64,000 nt of DNA from Candidatus Omnitrophota bacterium (GTDB lineage: Bacteria; Omnitrophota; Gorgyraeia; Zapsychrales; JANLHA01): NCBI GenBank assembly GCA_963662715.1, contig OY759724.1:1690662-1754661 (forward strand), written 5' to 3'. Below, one piece after another: positions 52,713-58,607 of this stretch. Each line of letters starts with the position of its first letter. Position 1 is the first letter of the stretch. A program made the translations under genes and the position numbers. The notes under the pieces are model-generated. The model worked only from the letters and a program-made list of their open reading frames with translations, made no database searches and was not told the DNA's origin.

Positions 52713-54515
52713 ATGTCTGTGAAAGAAAAGACGACTCTGTTTTTGATTTTTGCCCTGGCCTTGGGTCTGCGGCTGGGATATACAGTCTTTTTAAGACAGC
52801 ATTATCCTTTTTATAATAACCCCAGTTCCGATGTGTATTATTATCAGCAATGGGCTGACAGCATCGCCCGGGGGGACTGGTCCGCCGTGACACGGCTGCA
52901 GGGCCTGCCGCTGTATCCGTTAACCTTAGCCCTTCTGAAACGTTTGACCCTGAATCACGCGGGCCTGATCCGTTTTCTGCATCTTCTGCTGGGCTCTTTA
53001 AATTGTGTTCTGGTTTATTTTATAGGCAGGGCCTTATTCACGAAAAGGGTGGCCGGGCTGGCCGCCGGGCTTACGGCTGTCAACCTTCCTCTGATATATT
53101 ATGACTGGCTGATGATGCCGGTGCCGTTCATTATAGCCCTTTCCCTGCTCCTTGTTCTTGCGCTGGTGCAGGAGGAAAAAATATCCCGGAAACGGGAATG
53201 GTTTATGGTAGGGCTGCTGGCCGGCTGGCTCGTCTTGGGGGACGGGAAGGTCTTTTTGTTCTTGATATTGCTGTGTCTGTCTGTCCTGTGCGGCCGTTCG
53301 TGGGCTAAAAAGAAAGAACAGCTTCTGCGGCTGGGGCCGGTGTTTTTGGGTGTCGCGGTGATCCTCGGGGCGCTGACCTTGTATTATAAACGTACAAGCG
53401 GGGAATGGGTTTTCATCTCCTCCAAAAGCGGGTTCAGTTTTTACGCAGGAAATCATCAGCAGGCGCAGGGATATTACGTGCATCCGCTTTCGCTGCGGGC
53501 CAGCCACCATGCCCAGGATGAAGACCAGAAAAGGATCGCCGAACAAAATATGAAGCGGCCGCTTAAGCAGACGGAAGTTTCGCAATACTGGACACGTTTG
53601 GCTTTTAAGTATATCCAGGAGAACCCGCTGGATTATCTTGTCCTGTTAGGAAAGAAATGCCGGTTGTTTTTCACGGACACGGAAAAGGCGCATGACCTGG
53701 ATTTGCTTATGCAGAAACAATGGGTGCGGCGCTGGGATATCAATCCTTTCGCGGTCTTGTTTCCCCTGGCTTTGTGGGGGATGTTTCTGGCTCTGCGTTC
53801 CCGGGAAAGAACTCTACCGCTTGTATTACTGGTTGTCAGCCAGTGGCTTTTTACCTTAATATATTATCTTACCAGCCGCCACCGTGTCAGTATTTACCCG
53901 GCGCTGTTTTTGTTCCAGGCGTTCGCGCTGGACTGTTTTGTCCGGGACATTTATAGAAGACAGTATAAGAACCTCACCGTACCTGCCGGTTTCTTTCTCC
54001 TGTATCTCTTTTTATTCCCTCCGCAGAAAGAAGATCCCCGTTACCTGGATTACCTTTATTCGCTTAAGATGGGCCAGAAGCATGAGCTGCTTAAAGAATA
54101 CCCGGAAGCCCGGCAATTTTATTCGCGGGCAGTACGCCTTCATCCGCAGAATGCCGATGCGTGGTTCAGCCTGGGCAATGTGTGTTTACTGGACCGGCAA
54201 TATGCCCAGGCGCAACGGTATTATTGGCGAGCGCTGAAAATAAATGCTTTGCATACGGATGCGCTTTATAACCTTGGATTTGCCTATGAGAAGGATGCAA
54301 AACCTGAGAAGGCCAGGCAATGCTACGCCGTTATCCTGCAGACGGACCCGGAAAGCGTGGATGTTCATTACCGGATAGCGCAGGTGCTTCAACAGCAAGG
54401 GCAGTGTGCAGCAGCGCTCCGGCATATGAAAATTGTGGTCCGGGCCAGGCCCGACATGCGGCCGGAGTTCACGGAAATGCTGCAGAATTGCAATGGGATA
54501 GGAGGGGAGGAATAG
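52713..54515 (+). CDS. membrane GT39/PMT-like glycosyltransferase with C-terminal TPR repeats
   Basis: Multiple TM helices, then TPR 34-mers (FYSRAVRLHPQNADAWFSLGNV..., YYWRALKINALHTDALYNLGFAY...). Confidence 0.55.
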   Translation: MSVKEKTTLFLIFALALGLRLGYTVFLRQHYPFYNNPSSDVYYYQQWADSIARGDWSAVTRLQGLPLYPLTLALLKRLTLNHAGLIRFLHLLLGSLNCVLVYFIGRALFTKRVAGLAAGLTAVNLPLIYYDWLMMPVPFIIALSLLLVLALVQEEKISRKREWFMVGLLAGWLVLGDGKVFLFLILLCLSVLCGRSWAKKKEQLLRLGPVFLGVAVILGALTLYYKRTSGEWVFISSKSGFSFYAGNHQQAQGYYVHPLSLRASHHAQDEDQKRIAEQNMKRPLKQTEVSQYWTRLAFKYIQENPLDYLVLLGKKCRLFFTDTEKAHDLDLLMQKQWVRRWDINPFAVLFPLALWGMFLALRSRERTLPLVLLVVSQWLFTLIYYLTSRHRVSIYPALFLFQAFALDCFVRDIYRRQYKNLTVPAGFFLLYLFLFPPQKEDPRYLDYLYSLKMGQKHELLKEYPEARQFYSRAVRLHPQNADAWFSLGNVCLLDRQYAQAQRYYWRALKINALHTDALYNLGFAYEKDAKPEKARQCYAVILQTDPESVDVHYRIAQVLQQQGQCAAALRHMKIVVRARPDMRPEFTEMLQNCNGIGGEE

Positions 54516-54517
54516 GA

Positions 54518-54555
54518 GTGTTAAGGGTATTAAGAGTATTAAGGGTATTAAGGGG
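54518..54555. repeat. tandem 9-mer repeat GTATTAAGG x4
   Basis: gtgttaagggtattaagagtattaagggtattaagggg immediately after stop of 52713..54515. Confidence 0.6.
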
Positions 54556-54579
54556 AGCCTGGATACTTTCCTGATTTAT

Positions 54580-54629
54580 ACCCCGATATTATACGACCTG
54601 CCATTTAACGGATAATAAAGGGGAAATGC
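54580..54629. repeat. 50-bp direct repeat, copy 1 (with 54905..54955)
   Basis: ttatacgacctgccatttaacggataataaaggggaaatgcgactttctt, about 80% identical to copy 2; shared ATGCGACTT core also at about 54737. Confidence 0.5.
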
Positions 54630-54904
54630 GACTTTCTTAGATGGAAATTGGGTATTATTCTGAAAAATTTAATATTTTTAGTCAAAGATGGCATGACTCA
54701 TTAAGTATTTTTCAGATCATTGGGTATACCCTAATAAATAATTCATGCGACTTATTACTTTTTTTGGGAAATAGATAAGAAAATGTCGAAAAATGTCAGT
54801 CTTTGGCCCAATCCAGCCATTGACAAAGAGGAGGATAAGGGCTAATAATAAATAATATTCAGCTTTTAAATTAGCAGAAAATGCTTTTTTAGCAAAATTC
54901 TAAT

Positions 54905-54955
54905 GTTATACGACGTCCCAATTAACAGTATAAATAGGGGCAAATGCGACTTTGT
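54905..54955. repeat. 50-bp direct repeat, copy 2
   Basis: ttatacgacgtcccaattaacagtataaataggggcaaatgcgactttgtt. Confidence 0.5.
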
Positions 54956-55061
54956 TCCAGTAAAGCTGGCGCGAAAACAAGCATTTTTCAAATAAAATAA
55001 GGTATAATGAAAAAAACACACCAAGGAAAGAGAACGAAATCCCCACTCCTCGGTCACGACG

Positions 55062-55068
55062 TAGAATA
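55062..55068 (+). other. attI-like or remnant attC core site GTTATGA marking left boundary of cassette array
   Basis: Exact reverse complement of the TCATAAC inverse core of attC1 (55406-55412). Confidence 0.4.
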
Positions 55069-55087
55069 ATTGTTATGAGGTAAGAAG

Positions 55088-55399
55088 ATGAAATACAGAA
55101 TAGATTTTACAGGAATACCGTGGGAAGAACCAATTAAAGGCCTAAGGTTCAAAGCTACTGTTCAGGATGGGACAAGGATCCGCCTTGCTGAATTTTCAAA
55201 AGATTTTATAGAGGCAGAGTGGTGCCTGAAAGGGCATACAGGATATCTGCTGGAAGGAAGTGTGGAAATTGATTTTAATGGAGAAAAAATTATTTTTAAT
55301 CAAGGAGATGGTATTTATATCCCTCCTGGAGAACAATCTAAACATAAAACGAAGGTTCTTTCGGACAAAGCTGTCGCAATATTGATAGAAAAAATATAA
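55088..55399 (+). CDS. cassette 1: small cupin-domain protein
   Basis: 103 aa, cupin_2-like beta-barrel motifs (GHTGYLLEG...IYIPPGE); RBS GAGGTAAG. Confidence 0.6.
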   Translation: MKYRIDFTGIPWEEPIKGLRFKATVQDGTRIRLAEFSKDFIEAEWCLKGHTGYLLEGSVEIDFNGEKIIFNQGDGIYIPPGEQSKHKTKVLSDKAVAILIEKI

Positions 55400-55494: not shown

Positions 55495-55974
55495 ATGAGA
55501 AAATATCAACTTCCAAAATTTTTAGAACGAATGGTTGATCAAAAAGACTATGAAAAATGGTTACGCAGAAAAGCTGTAGCCCATGTTCGCCGCGATAGAA
55601 ACCGAGGATATAAATTAGCTACGAATGAAATATACAAGATTGCTATTCACAAAGCAGTATGTGAATCTGAAGGAAAAGATGCATACACAGAAGAAAGATT
55701 AGATTGGTCATTAATTAGTAAATATGATAACGAACAATCAAAAAAATATGGTAGGAAATACAAAAAACAATTTGCTTTATTGCCTTCTGTTGATCATGTG
55801 GGAGATGGAAAAGGAACAGCAAATTTCAAGATTTGTTCATGGCGTACCAATGATTCCAAGAACGATCTGTCTTACGTTGAGTTTTTAGGATTATGTAAAA
55901 AGGTTATAGCAGCAGCTAACAAGTCACTCCAGCGGGGCCTTTCGGCACCTTCGGCAGCCTCAAGACCCCGCTGA
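55495..55974 (+). CDS. cassette 2: hypothetical protein with degenerate HNH-like motif; ORF terminates inside attC2
   Basis: SVDHVGDGKGTANFKICSWRTNDSKND resembles His-Me finger (DH...N...C..N..K) with one Cys lost. Confidence 0.35.
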   Translation: MRKYQLPKFLERMVDQKDYEKWLRRKAVAHVRRDRNRGYKLATNEIYKIAIHKAVCESEGKDAYTEERLDWSLISKYDNEQSKKYGRKYKKQFALLPSVDHVGDGKGTANFKICSWRTNDSKNDLSYVEFLGLCKKVIAAANKSLQRGLSAPSAASRPR

Positions 55975-55990
55975 GTTCCTTGCGTTCGCC
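55914..55990 (+). repeat. attC-like site 2 (R'' AGCTAAC ... R' GTTCGCC)
   Basis: R'' is reverse complement of attC1 R'; CACTcCAGCGGGG...CCCCGCTGAGTTCCTTGCGTT. Confidence 0.6.
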
Positions 55991-56023
55991 AGTAGAAGAT
56001 CGAAACAACCATAAGGAGGAAAC

Positions 56024-57046
56024 ATGTTCGGTATACGCTTCATCAAGGTTGAACCTACGGAATTCGTACTCCAGTTCAAGCGGGGCAAGGTCGTGCGCGA
56101 GGGGGCGGGCATCTCTTTCTTCTACTTCGCGCCCACGACGTCGCTTGTCCGCATCCCAATCGGCAGCGTGGACGTACCGTTCATCTTCGAGGAAGTCACC
56201 GCCGACTTTCAGGAGGTGACGGTTCAGGGGCAATTGACCTACCGAGTCGCAGAGGCGAAGAAGCTATCCCAGCTCATGAACTTCACGCTGGCGCCGAACG
56301 GGCGGGAGTATGCGTCCGACGATCCTAAGAAACTTCCCCAGCGGCTCATCAATCACGCTCAGGTTCTGACTCGCGCATCTCTGAAATCCCTGCGCCTTAA
56401 GGAGGCGTTGGGCCAATCGGACGCGCTTGTGGCCTCGCTACGCGAGGGACTCCAGTCTGCGGAAGCGATCGCTTCACTCGGCATTGAAATCCTAGGACTC
56501 TCCATCTTGGCCATCAAACCGACGCCCGAGACTTCCCGCGCACTGGAAGCAGAGGCACGTGAGCAGGTTCTTCGTGAGGCCGACGAAGCCGTATATTCGC
56601 GCCGCAACGCTGCGGTCGAGCAGGAACGGGGTATCAAGGAAAACGAACTCAACACCGAGATTGCCGTCGAAAACAAGAAGCGGCAGATCAAGGAAGCCCA
56701 GATGGATGCCGAGAAATCCGTCCAGCAGAAGAAGCGAGAGATCAGAGAAGCGGAGATGGCTGCCAAGATTGCGATAGAGGAGAAGAACAAGGATCTTGTG
56801 GCTCTCTCCACGGCCAATGCCCGCGAGGAAGCAGACGCGAAGGCATACGCCATCGCTGCGGTGATGAAGGCATTATCGGAGACCGATCCGAAGACCCTAC
56901 AGGCTCTCACAAGCGTGGGCATGGAGCCGGGACAACTGGTCGCACTGGCCTTCAAGGAACTTGCGGAAAGCGCTGACAAGATCGGCCAACTGAACGTGTC
57001 GCCGGAGTTGCTCCGCGAACTCCTCCATCGAGATTCTATCAAGTGA
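56024..57046 (+). CDS. cassette 3 gene A: SPFH/band-7 (flotillin/prohibitin-like) domain protein with long C-terminal coiled coil
   Basis: N-terminal SPFH core then Ala/Glu/Lys-rich heptads; strong SD AAGGAGGAAAC; GC-rich relative to neighbours. Confidence 0.75.
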   Translation: MFGIRFIKVEPTEFVLQFKRGKVVREGAGISFFYFAPTTSLVRIPIGSVDVPFIFEEVTADFQEVTVQGQLTYRVAEAKKLSQLMNFTLAPNGREYASDDPKKLPQRLINHAQVLTRASLKSLRLKEALGQSDALVASLREGLQSAEAIASLGIEILGLSILAIKPTPETSRALEAEAREQVLREADEAVYSRRNAAVEQERGIKENELNTEIAVENKKRQIKEAQMDAEKSVQQKKREIREAEMAAKIAIEEKNKDLVALSTANAREEADAKAYAIAAVMKALSETDPKTLQALTSVGMEPGQLVALAFKELAESADKIGQLNVSPELLRELLHRDSIK

Positions 57047-57984
57047 CAGAAAGACGGACAGAGAACAAGATTGTGATTGTCGTCAGGCGAACGCGCCTCG
57101 ACGACCTGATCGCTCGGTTCAACACCGAGGACCAAGCACGGTTCTATGTTGAGCATTTAGGATCAGACTTCTCCGACTATCAGGCAGAACATCGGGTGTA
57201 CAAGCAGGTTGTTCGTGATGCCGAGAACACCCTTTCCCGTCATGGGCGAGTGCAAGTTATCGACCGAGCATTTGTTCCGAATTTTATTTTCGGATCAAAG
57301 GACACAGTCGTTGCCATCGGTCAGGATGGTCTGGTTGCAAATGTTCTCAAGTATCTCGACGGGCAGCTACTCCTTGGTGTCAATCCCGATGTCAAGAGAT
57401 GGGAAGGCGTTCTGTTGCCCTTCACGGTGGCTGACCTGGACTCGGTCATGCCGGAGGTCTTTGCGCGCAAACGACCCGTAGCCGAGGTGACGATGGCGGA
57501 AGTTAGGCTCAACACAGGCGAGACTCTGTGTGCGGTCAATGACCTTTTCATCGGTCCACGCACGCACACTTCAGCGCGTTACTTGATTCGAGTCGGGGAG
57601 AAGATGGAGAACCATTCGTCAAGTGGGATCATCGTGTCGACGGGTCTCGGATCAACCGGCTGGTTGCGAAGCATCATGGCTGGAGCGACAGGAGTTACCT
57701 CTGTTCTGTCGGGCAGACCACTGAAAATCAACGAGAGAAGGGCCGTTGCGTGGGATGCCAACTATCTCTACTTCTCGGTGCGGGAGCCATGGCCGAGCAA
57801 GACTTCTGGAGCGGAGATTACCTTCGGCAAGGTAACCTCCACCACGCCGCTCATTCTTGTCTCACAGATGCCGGAGAACGGCGTTATCTTCAGCGACGGG
57901 ATTGAGACAGATTTCTTGCAGTTCAACTCAGGCACGGAAGCCACTATCACAATGGCCGAAAGGAAAGGGCATCTTGTAACGTGA
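57043..57984 (+). CDS. cassette 3 gene B: NAD-kinase-fold (NadK/DAGK_cat-like) protein
   Basis: GTG start overlapping SPFH stop (GTGA); KIVIVVRR, AIGQDGL (GGDG-like), NDLFIG (NE-like), STGLGSTGW (GSTAYS-like) motifs. Confidence 0.6.
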   Translation: MTERRTENKIVIVVRRTRLDDLIARFNTEDQARFYVEHLGSDFSDYQAEHRVYKQVVRDAENTLSRHGRVQVIDRAFVPNFIFGSKDTVVAIGQDGLVANVLKYLDGQLLLGVNPDVKRWEGVLLPFTVADLDSVMPEVFARKRPVAEVTMAEVRLNTGETLCAVNDLFIGPRTHTSARYLIRVGEKMENHSSSGIIVSTGLGSTGWLRSIMAGATGVTSVLSGRPLKINERRAVAWDANYLYFSVREPWPSKTSGAEITFGKVTSTTPLILVSQMPENGVIFSDGIETDFLQFNSGTEATITMAERKGHLVT

Positions 57985-57997
57985 GAAGATGGAGCAT

Positions 57998-58075
57998 GGC
58001 GAACAACAGCTTGGACCACTACGTTTCACACCGCGCGGACGCAGCGTGAAACGAGGGTCAAGCTGGACGTTATGT
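57998..58075 (+). repeat. attC-like site 3, different sequence family (R'' GGCGAAC ... R' GTTATGT)
   Basis: R'' complements attC2 R' GTTCGCC; internal stems CAGCTTG/CAAGCTG and GTTTCAC/GTGAAAC. Confidence 0.55.
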
Positions 58076-58091
58076 CTTAAAGGAAGAATAA

Positions 58092-58607
58092 ATGTCGAGA
58101 TCAAAGTCTGATATAGCTAACAGTGCAATAAGAATATTTTTGCAAGATGTTGGTAGATTTTATGACCAAGCCAGGGGTTTTGACCCCTTTATTCCAAAGA
58201 AAAATCAAAAAGAAGAACTATTGTCTTATTTTGAAAGTCAATGTTGCTTTTGCGGCTCTGAAATTAATCAGAAGTCTTTCTCACTGGATCATTTAATACC
58301 CTTGAATAAAGCTTCTTTAGGTCTTCATGCTTGGGGAAACGTGGTCCCTTGTTGTAGGGACTGCAATAATGAAAAGCAACAAAAACCTTGGCAAAATTTT
58401 ATGAAATTAAAGTGTAGGGGCTCAGAATATAAGAAAAGAAGATCTCGAATTGAAAATTTTATAAAAATAAAAAAATATGATCCAAACCTTAATTTACATG
58501 AATATGCAGATAATTTATATGAAGATGTTGGTGAGGTAGCTACAACACTTATTAAACTTCGGTATAAACAAGCGGAAGACGGCATTAAAAACTTATTAGG
58601 AAAATAA
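58092..58607 (+). CDS. cassette 4: HNH endonuclease
   Basis: CCFCGSEI ... SLDHLIPLNKASLGLHAWGNVVPCCRDCNNEKQ canonical HNH; RBS AAAGGAAG. Confidence 0.7.
   Translation: MSRSKSDIANSAIRIFLQDVGRFYDQARGFDPFIPKKNQKEELLSYFESQCCFCGSEINQKSFSLDHLIPLNKASLGLHAWGNVVPCCRDCNNEKQQKPWQNFMKLKCRGSEYKKRRSRIENFIKIKKYDPNLNLHEYADNLYEDVGEVATTLIKLRYKQAEDGIKNLLGK

Follow-up and report, generated by a model that had tools for sequence, protein, structure and literature searches.

A mobile gene pair encoding an SPFH protein and an NADK2-type kinase-fold protein, a probable nrtX-nrtY module, in an integron cassette of Candidatus Omnitrophota

The window analysed here is a 64,000-nt stretch of the genome of a Candidatus Omnitrophota bacterium (assembly GCA_963662715.1, contig OY759724.1, positions 1,690,662 to 1,754,661 of the forward strand). 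Towards its end lies an integron gene cassette carrying two overlapping open reading frames (ORFs), of which ORF A encodes an SPFH/Band_7 protein and ORF B a protein with the NAD-kinase fold. The same two genes stand together in bacteria of many phyla, in part next to the gene of the regulator NrtR and to genes of NAD salvage. On balance we favour the reading that the pair provides an accessory NAD(H) kinase on an SPFH scaffold, an ADP-ribose-inducible module of the NrtR regulon that would have been captured here without its regulator; this reading draws on sequence comparison and structure models.

The cassette and its two genes

The features of the cassette are located in the window as follows.

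55919..55989, plus strand: attC site of the preceding cassette, forming the left boundary; G/TT crossover at 55984/55985; bottom-strand bulged hairpin of -19 kcal/mol, z -3.5; repeat family D3, D6, D8
55985..58069, plus strand: integron gene cassette of 2,085 bp with two genes, its limits set by the attC cores
56014..56019, plus strand: Shine-Dalgarno sequence AGGAGG of ORF A, ending 4 nt before the ATG, as read from the sequence
56024..57046, plus strand: ORF A (nrtX-like), SPFH/Band_7 protein of 340 aa, ATG start
57043..57046, plus strand: GTGA stop/start overlap, with the stop TGA of ORF A at 57044-57046 and the start GTG of ORF B at 57043-57045
57043..57984, plus strand: ORF B (nrtY-like), NADK2/C5orf33-type NAD-kinase-fold protein of 313 aa, GTG start
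58003..58076, plus strand: the cassette's own attC site; G/TT at 58069/58070; bottom-strand long bulged hairpin of -24 kcal/mol, z -6.8

The overlap of the two reading frames, pointed out in the initial annotation, was confirmed, and the GTG start of ORF B is supported by homologues, which align from residue 1-3. ORF B has no ribosome-binding site comparable to the AGGAGG of ORF A, which fits the translational coupling of the two genes that is predicted from the sequence, the GTGA overlap indicating it.

The unit has the features of an integron cassette: it ends in a 3' attC, is compact and promoterless, and is placed among other attC sites. The hairpin of its own attC was not equalled in stability by any of 200 shuffled sequences. 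The sequence of this site is unlike the consensus attC of the array and falls outside the GAGTTCNTTGCGTT family, a motif that occurs in six copies in the window, all between 55.4 and 63.8 kb (a count reached by none of 100 shuffles). An exact copy of GAGTTCCTTGCGTT is found at 55973-55986, within the left-boundary attC. The GC content of the cassette is 0.557, as compared with 0.369 and 0.344 in the flanking cassettes and 0.482 over the remainder of the window. In its composition the cassette is foreign, as the initial annotation had proposed from its high GC content, and its attC likewise differs from those of its neighbours. The cassette itself also proved real, with its end at 58069 rather than at the earlier position of 58075, an immaterial difference of 6 nt. 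From the left boundary to the ATG there is a leader of only 38 nt, too short to accommodate a promoter, and no palindrome or NrtR operator was found in these 38 nt. Since the cassette is promoterless and brings neither NrtR nor its operator, its expression would depend on read-through in the array.

ORF A matches the Pfam family Band_7 at E 5.5e-17 (62.8 bits; cutoff 23.6). In its AlphaFold2 monomer model (pLDDT 70.8) an SPFH domain of approximately residues 8-189 leads into a single 118-residue helix (168-285), followed by short C-terminal helices, in agreement with the SPFH protein with a coiled-coil tail that had been proposed initially. Foldseek matches this model to stomatin, HflK/C and prohibitin (probability 1.00), as well as to erlin, flotillin, QmcA and, more weakly, the major vault protein (MVP). 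The vault entries among these weaker matches include structures with bound ADP-ribose or PARP4, which is mentioned as a curiosity only. Neither in ORF A nor in its homologues was an N-terminal transmembrane segment, hairpin or hydrophobic anchor found; the sole 19-mer of ORF A with KD19 >1.6 (residues 146-164) forms a core beta-strand of the model. The 118-residue helix, as seen in the monomer model, is compatible with assembly into a ring or cage.

The structure model of ORF B (pLDDT 85.2, pTM 0.81) adopts the two-domain NAD-kinase fold, and all of its top 50 Foldseek matches are NAD(H) kinases. In profile comparison the family is closer to NADK2 than to the classical NAD kinases: a profile built from ten members matches NADK2 at E 2.6e-15 versus about 2e-3 for classical NadK. 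The key residues of ORF B are listed below.

G93-Q-D95-G: GQDG motif with the catalytic Asp
G112-V-N-P-D: GVNPD stretch
N166-D167: ND motif
S194 and T205-G-W207: C-terminal signature

The motifs GQDGL, NDL and STGLGSTGW, described in the initial annotation as those of a NAD-kinase-like catalytic fold, are present as claimed and are invariant or nearly so across the family, and the NAD-kinase fold itself is confirmed by Foldseek. Among members that are 34-86% identical, the residues G-Q-D95-G-L-V-A-N, N166 and S194...T-G-x-G-x-T205-G-W207 are invariant, while the GVNPD stretch and D167 are invariant among the closer members. D95 aligns with the Asp of the NADK2 GGDG motif, the catalytic D161, whose replacement in the D161N mutant leaves NADK2 nearly inactive. 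The N166-D167 pair and the S194...T200-G-x-G-x-T205-G-W207 stretch align with NE and SSG...GSKAW of NADK2, respectively, and R16 aligns with its diphosphate-binding K76; it is the adjacent R15 that is invariant in the family. In kinases of the C5orf33 type, Ser, then Lys, Ser, Thr or Arg, and Trp replace Asp189, Thr200 and Tyr202 of PpnK (Ohashi 2012). S194, T205 and W207, which are invariant in 50 sequences, match Ser306, Lys317 and Trp319 of C5orf33. The family consensus QP(V/L)IGVNPDP resembles motif 1 of C5orf33, PX-GXN(T/S)DP, but for Pro in place of Thr/Ser; the window copy has QLLLGVNPDV at this position. On the grounds of the fold matches, the alignment of D95 and the S194/T205/W207 signature, ORF B is assigned from sequence and model as a kinase-fold protein of the NADK2 type with an intact active site.

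Conservation of the pair and its link with NrtR

Relatives of ORF B number at least 8,000 at 90% clustering; at 50% clustering the family still counts at least 293 representatives at E<=1e-30, and 2,124 when the threshold is relaxed to E<=1e-3. Identity is 74-86% for the closest relatives; two of these have organism names, and they belong to different phyla. For the analysis of gene order, 80 loci were drawn from contigs representing one genome per species. They cover more than 10 phyla, including Verrucomicrobiota, Planctomycetota, Chloroflexi, Cyanobacteria, Bacteroidota, Gamma-, Beta- and Deltaproteobacteria, Nitrospirota, Bacillota and Spirochaetes. An SPFH homologue lies immediately upstream of the kinase gene in 77 of them (77 of the 79 assessable); of the remaining three, one is not assessable owing to a contig end, and two are true exceptions, with a deletion (L042) and an unrelated gene in the upstream position (L074, Thiomargarita). 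The two genes overlap or abut in 64/79 loci, with a median distance of -4 nt as extrapolated from tblastn coordinates, and the identities of the SPFH protein and the kinase to the window copies co-vary (r = 0.89). Even a kinase only 34% identical to ORF B still has a divergent SPFH gene upstream (hhalign probability 97%), and one metagenomic locus encodes a natural single-chain SPFH-kinase fusion of 574 aa (P0394, L085 4001-5725).

With this pairing recovered in 77 of 80 other genomes, the two genes cannot be neighbours by chance; they form a fixed, conserved unit. Clustering of 841 neighbouring ORFs revealed no third universally conserved gene.

The module is also mobile, as is evident from its high identity across phyla, its presence on conjugative and mobilisable plasmids, the cassette described here, and an independent metagenomic copy in an unrelated context (L090 4908-6913 / L091 344-2349) with 86.8% nucleotide identity. 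Homology to this copy runs from window position 55983, at the left crossover, to 57988, 4 nt past the kinase stop, and excludes the attC; only the 2-kb module is shared, and no attC-like inverted repeat was found in L090/L091. The possibility that the cassette is shared among close relatives was rejected, the flanks of the 20 closest loci being unrelated. In Proteus mirabilis the kinase gene adjoins tetR-tet(J) (L082 5939-7849), and in Acinetobacter lwoffii tetR(H)-tet(H) (L084 6951-8868). Fragments of the kinase gene, covering about 28-48% of it at the 3' end, are found on several small plasmids of Actinobacillus, Psychrobacter, Wohlfahrtiimonas and Proteus vulgaris (H55-H60), and they may be remnants of the mobilisation of tet(H)/tet(J) units.

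Neighbouring genes were counted by similarity search across 84 loci, and protein families were assigned among 274 neighbours and among 142 immediate flanking proteins. Those pertinent to NAD metabolism, together with one further recurrent partner, are given below.

NrtR: 16/84 loci
PncB (nicotinate phosphoribosyltransferase): 5/84 loci
NadM-Nudix (bifunctional nicotinamide mononucleotide adenylyltransferase/ADP-ribose pyrophosphatase): 3/84 loci
Protein of 700-830 aa with an S-adenosylmethionine (SAM)-methyltransferase domain: 9/84 loci, in clostridial operons of the order NrtR-(PncB)-methyltransferase-SPFH-kinase

The most recurrent families are NUDIX (15/274 neighbours) and the NrtR winged-helix domain, NrtR_WHD (12/274). 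Two ADP-ribosylglycohydrolases also occur among the 274, and the neighbours are otherwise heterogeneous, with 213 Pfam families over the 142 flanking proteins. Linkage with NrtR is likewise seen in L085, L087 and L088. In the operon of the single-chain fusion the order is NrtR, ADP-ribosylglycohydrolase, a 213-aa protein belonging to no family, and the fusion. NrtR and the SPFH-kinase pair are divergently arranged in Proteus, Acinetobacter, Rhizobium and L087, and in Rhizobium etli, Acinetobacter lwoffii and Proteus mirabilis this divergent NUDIX/NrtR arrangement resides on a plasmid or chromid. The 34%-identical member stands divergently to NrtR amid core genes (tig, der and groES/EL). In a Streptomyces linear plasmid (L083 2162-3820) the pair, whose kinase is 35% identical, follows a von Willebrand factor A / YfbK_C protein.

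In Bacillota the 700-830-aa protein precedes the pair in the same operon (L021 2496-4970, L027 2853-4967, L029, L032, L041, L045, L049 and L073) and bears a C-terminal class I SAM-methyltransferase domain (NCBIfam PRK06922, E ~1e-261). NrtR and PncB are often encoded further upstream, and the methyltransferase represents a third recurrent partner.

The regulons of NrtR were reconstructed by Rodionov et al. (2008, NAR 36:2047; PMC2330246), who described an operator core of GT-N7-AC and the release of NrtR from DNA by ADP-ribose. Their Table 1 lists 'Proteus mirabilis nrtR<#>nrtX-nrtY', a predicted operon of unknown function. This operon forms a divergent arrangement with nrtR in Proteus mirabilis, Kineococcus and Frankia, and has separate sites in Streptomyces and Hahella (PMC2330246). 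In P. mirabilis (L082) the sole two-gene operon divergent from an NrtR-like gene beside the homologues is the SPFH-kinase pair. The intergenic regions of Proteus and Acinetobacter each contain three TGTC-N5-GACA sites, which include the GT-N7-AC core, against a background of 0.27 per kb. The distant pair in L087 is preceded by two TTATTGT-N7-ACAATAA sites. Upstream of the Streptomyces pair there are two TCGTC-N5-GACGA sites but no neighbouring NrtR, in agreement with the table of the regulon study. When the regions upstream of all SPFH genes were scanned for 21-bp palindromes with the GT-N7-AC core, only the Proteus site was returned. The reading of these sequences as putative operators therefore relies on the repeated lineage-specific sites seen directly.

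Since the Proteus layout, the operator-like sites and the Streptomyces arrangement agree, the pair is very probably nrtX-nrtY, as judged from gene order and the putative operators. The initial annotation had not recognised the pairing as any named defence or toxin system, and this part stands, PADLOC giving no match; the layout in Proteus, however, matches the listed nrtX-nrtY (PMC2330246). In the literature searched, no paper links SPFH proteins with NAD kinase, with NrtR or with this pairing, and the single paper that mentions both band 7 and NAD kinase is irrelevant.

Proposed function and alternatives

ORF B, the putative NrtY, would most likely phosphorylate NAD(H) at its 2'-OH by means of Asp95 of the GQDG motif, with ATP (or polyphosphate) as the donor, yielding NADP(H). 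This reaction is proposed because NADK2 and plant NADK3, the characterised members of the nearest branch, perform it; NADK2 phosphorylates with ATP or polyphosphate, and plant NADK3 uses NADH. ORF A, the putative NrtX, would probably use its long helix to build a large ring-like or cage-like oligomer, by analogy with every structurally solved SPFH protein, and this assembly would bind, position or gate the kinase. Translational coupling would keep NrtX and NrtY at a constant ratio. Natively, the operon would be repressed by NrtR and switched on by accumulating ADP-ribose, which is a breakdown product of NAD, so that the module may adjust the NAD/NADP pool during NAD consumption. The window copy would have lost both regulator and operator and would be transcribed from the array.

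Several observations weigh against this reading. ORF B matches no Pfam family at E<=0.01, including NAD_kinase (PF01513). The best NCBIfam NAD-kinase score of ORF B is 23.7 bits versus a cutoff of 304, and one relative scores 23.9 bits on PF01513, the cutoff being 25.5. The second Gly of GGDG is Gln throughout the family, a change that could alter the donor or the acceptor. Only one in about five loci has NrtR next to the pair. No NAD-related gene flanks the ten relatives nearest to the window copy (72-84% identity to ORF B), and the 64-kb window itself encodes neither NrtR nor NadM or PncB. A strict shuffling test of 21-bp palindromes in five intergenic regions was not significant by itself. 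The equation with nrtX-nrtY draws on gene order in one named species and on operator-like sites, the main text of the regulon study giving neither locus tags nor protein families (PMC2330246).

Alternatively, the same module under the same NrtR control could contain a kinase acting on ADP-ribose, nicotinic acid adenine dinucleotide (NaAD) or another ADP-ribosyl compound, and serve the disposal or recycling of ADP-ribose rather than the production of NADP. The signal of the regulon is ADP-ribose, recurrent neighbours carry ADP-ribose pyrophosphatase domains (NadM-Nudix) or are ADP-ribosylglycohydrolases, and the replacements of GGDG by GQDG and of the acceptor-site Asp by Ser leave room for a changed specificity. 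Genomes with the pair would moreover be expected to carry a classical nadK as well. We regard this alternative as unlikely, though deserving of consideration.

A more elaborate version of the favoured reading is quite doubtful in our view. It envisages a soluble, vault-like cage of NrtX that would house or gate the NADK2-type kinase and, switched by ADP-ribose, convert or shield pyridine nucleotides during the destruction of NAD+, for which NADase toxins, defence systems or heavy ADP-ribosylation may be responsible. The assembly would then be the first cytosolic SPFH assembly with a defined enzymatic client, and the family would represent the prokaryotic stock of mitochondrial NADK2 and plant NADK3.

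The initial annotation had suggested an anti-phage or abortive infection system. In such a system the SPFH protein would be the sensor of infection or of damage to the membrane, and the kinase-fold protein would use up or convert NAD+. NAD is known to be contested in defence, and induction by ADP-ribose would suit a response to NADase activity. The cassette adjoins an HNH-nuclease cassette with weak PtuB-like matches, the patchy distribution and high cross-phylum similarity of the module point to horizontal transfer, and it is found on conjugative and mobilisable plasmids. Mobility alone, however, is no indication of defence. Neither protein matches PADLOC-DB v2 at E<=0.01. About 5 of the 142 immediate neighbours match PADLOC at E<=1e-10, in what is a crude test with no genome-wide background; the matching neighbours are three mad2, a type I methylase, a type IIG enzyme and a PD-T4-6 kinase. 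No tblastn match was obtained in 50,697 phage genomes and no match among the PHROG families, and a phage origin of the module was rejected on the same evidence. The neighbourhoods consist of NAD salvage genes or of ordinary core genes, the recurrent neighbours being housekeeping genes of NAD and ADP-ribose metabolism, NrtR foremost, and the protein retains the active site of a biosynthetic kinase rather than that of a NAD-cleaving effector. A literature search on SPFH proteins and anti-phage defence gave nothing pertinent. The anti-phage reading is therefore not upheld and is considered improbable; a conflict-related role in a wider sense, for example the buffering of NAD against NADases, is given the same low standing. 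It had also been held in the initial annotation that conservation as a housekeeping operon in non-mobile contexts would speak against a defence system. The pair comes near to this, except that ORF B is not a bona fide nadK.

A lipid kinase of the diacylglycerol, sphingosine or YegS type, for which the SPFH protein would organise a membrane microdomain to act on, is scarcely credible.

What is new in the module is a bacterial kinase of the NADK2 type, its fixed association with an anchor-less SPFH partner and its circulation as an integron cassette, while the component superfamilies were already known and the operon was apparently listed in 2008 without its protein families. The function of SPFH proteins is an old open question, and an anchor-less SPFH protein that is tied to one soluble enzyme, through overlapping genes, co-evolution and a fusion, offers a simple and tractable candidate for a client-scaffold pair. 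The family is specifically related to mitochondrial NADK2, the origin of which goes undiscussed in the cited NADK2 literature, and is a candidate prokaryotic relative. If the proposed function is true, it would account for the last unexplained members of the NrtR regulon. The case also calls for caution in screens for defence systems, as a foreign, GC-rich two-gene cassette that touches on NAD is not necessarily a defence system.

Array context and related systems

In the region 52713-55087 the array begins directly after the gene of a 600-aa glycosyltransferase-like TPR/PMT_2 protein, and a short tandem repeat (GTATTAAGG-like, ~4 copies) lies at 54517-54555. Two cassettes precede the one described above, encoding a 103-aa DHCW-type cupin (55088-55399) and a 159-aa orphan protein (55495-55974), and the 3' end of the latter ORF extends into its own attC. 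The next cassette (58092-58607) encodes a 171-aa HNH endonuclease with weak matches to PtuB (Septu/retron) and PDC-M01B at E 1e-7 to 1e-8, and its attC is interrupted by the first of two copies of an IS110-family element (58613-59872 and 61782-63041) that are 98.9% identical. Their transposase ORFs are located on the minus strand (58788-59840 and 61957-63009). Each copy lies inside an attC site, between 'TAACAA' and 'TCACTxCAGCGGG', which is the target preference of the IS1111-attC subgroup. The array extends past the window end. No integrase was recognised in the window, where ORFs within ~52.7-59.8 kb were those scanned against protein families; its integrase may be encoded beyond position 64000, or the attC sites may form a cluster that lacks one.

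Among known systems, the NAD-centred anti-phage systems (Thoeris, SIR2/TIR NADases) resemble the module in that NAD is involved and in their frequent location on mobile DNA. Their effectors cleave NAD, whereas ORF B has a kinase active site, matches no defence model and shows no association with defence islands.

Like the pair in L082, the nrtX-nrtY operon of Proteus mirabilis consists of two genes that diverge from nrtR. In Streptomyces it is listed at a locus of its own with an individual site, and the two palindromes ahead of the SPFH-kinase pair there agree with this. The window copy differs from it in being an integron cassette with neither NrtR nor an operator.

The cage-forming SPFH proteins (HflK/C, stomatin, prohibitin, flotillin, erlin and QmcA-YbbJ) share with ORF A an SPFH domain followed by a long helix and are its best structural matches. 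However, stomatin, HflK/C, flotillin and prohibitin have an N-terminal membrane anchor that ORF A lacks. Stomatin-NfeD operons likewise place an SPFH gene together with a dedicated partner. The partner of ORF A is a NAD-kinase-fold enzyme rather than NfeD or a protease as in known SPFH operons, and NfeD is not among the most frequent neighbour families of the pair. The shoulder and cap-helix of MVP offer another parallel, namely a soluble SPFH-like domain with a long helix that builds a closed cage; the Foldseek match of ORF A to MVP (E ~1e-5) is weak and local, with a TM-score of ~0.3 on the query. MVP carries many extra repeat domains, unlike ORF A, and a free cage of ORF A would be speculative.

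Classical bacterial NadK/PpnK (EC 2.7.1.23) shares the two-domain fold and the order of motifs with ORF B. NAD kinase has been described as the sole NADP-making enzyme, and bacteria are said to use a single NADK. The identity of ORF B to mitochondrial NADK2/C5orf33 and to plant NADK3, its nearest characterised relatives, is only 19-21%. NADK2 has GGDG in place of GQDG, and its solved chains are 391-398 aa long, including the metazoan dimerisation insert, as compared with the 313 aa of ORF B. Unlike NADK2, ORF B is bacterial and obligately paired with an SPFH gene.

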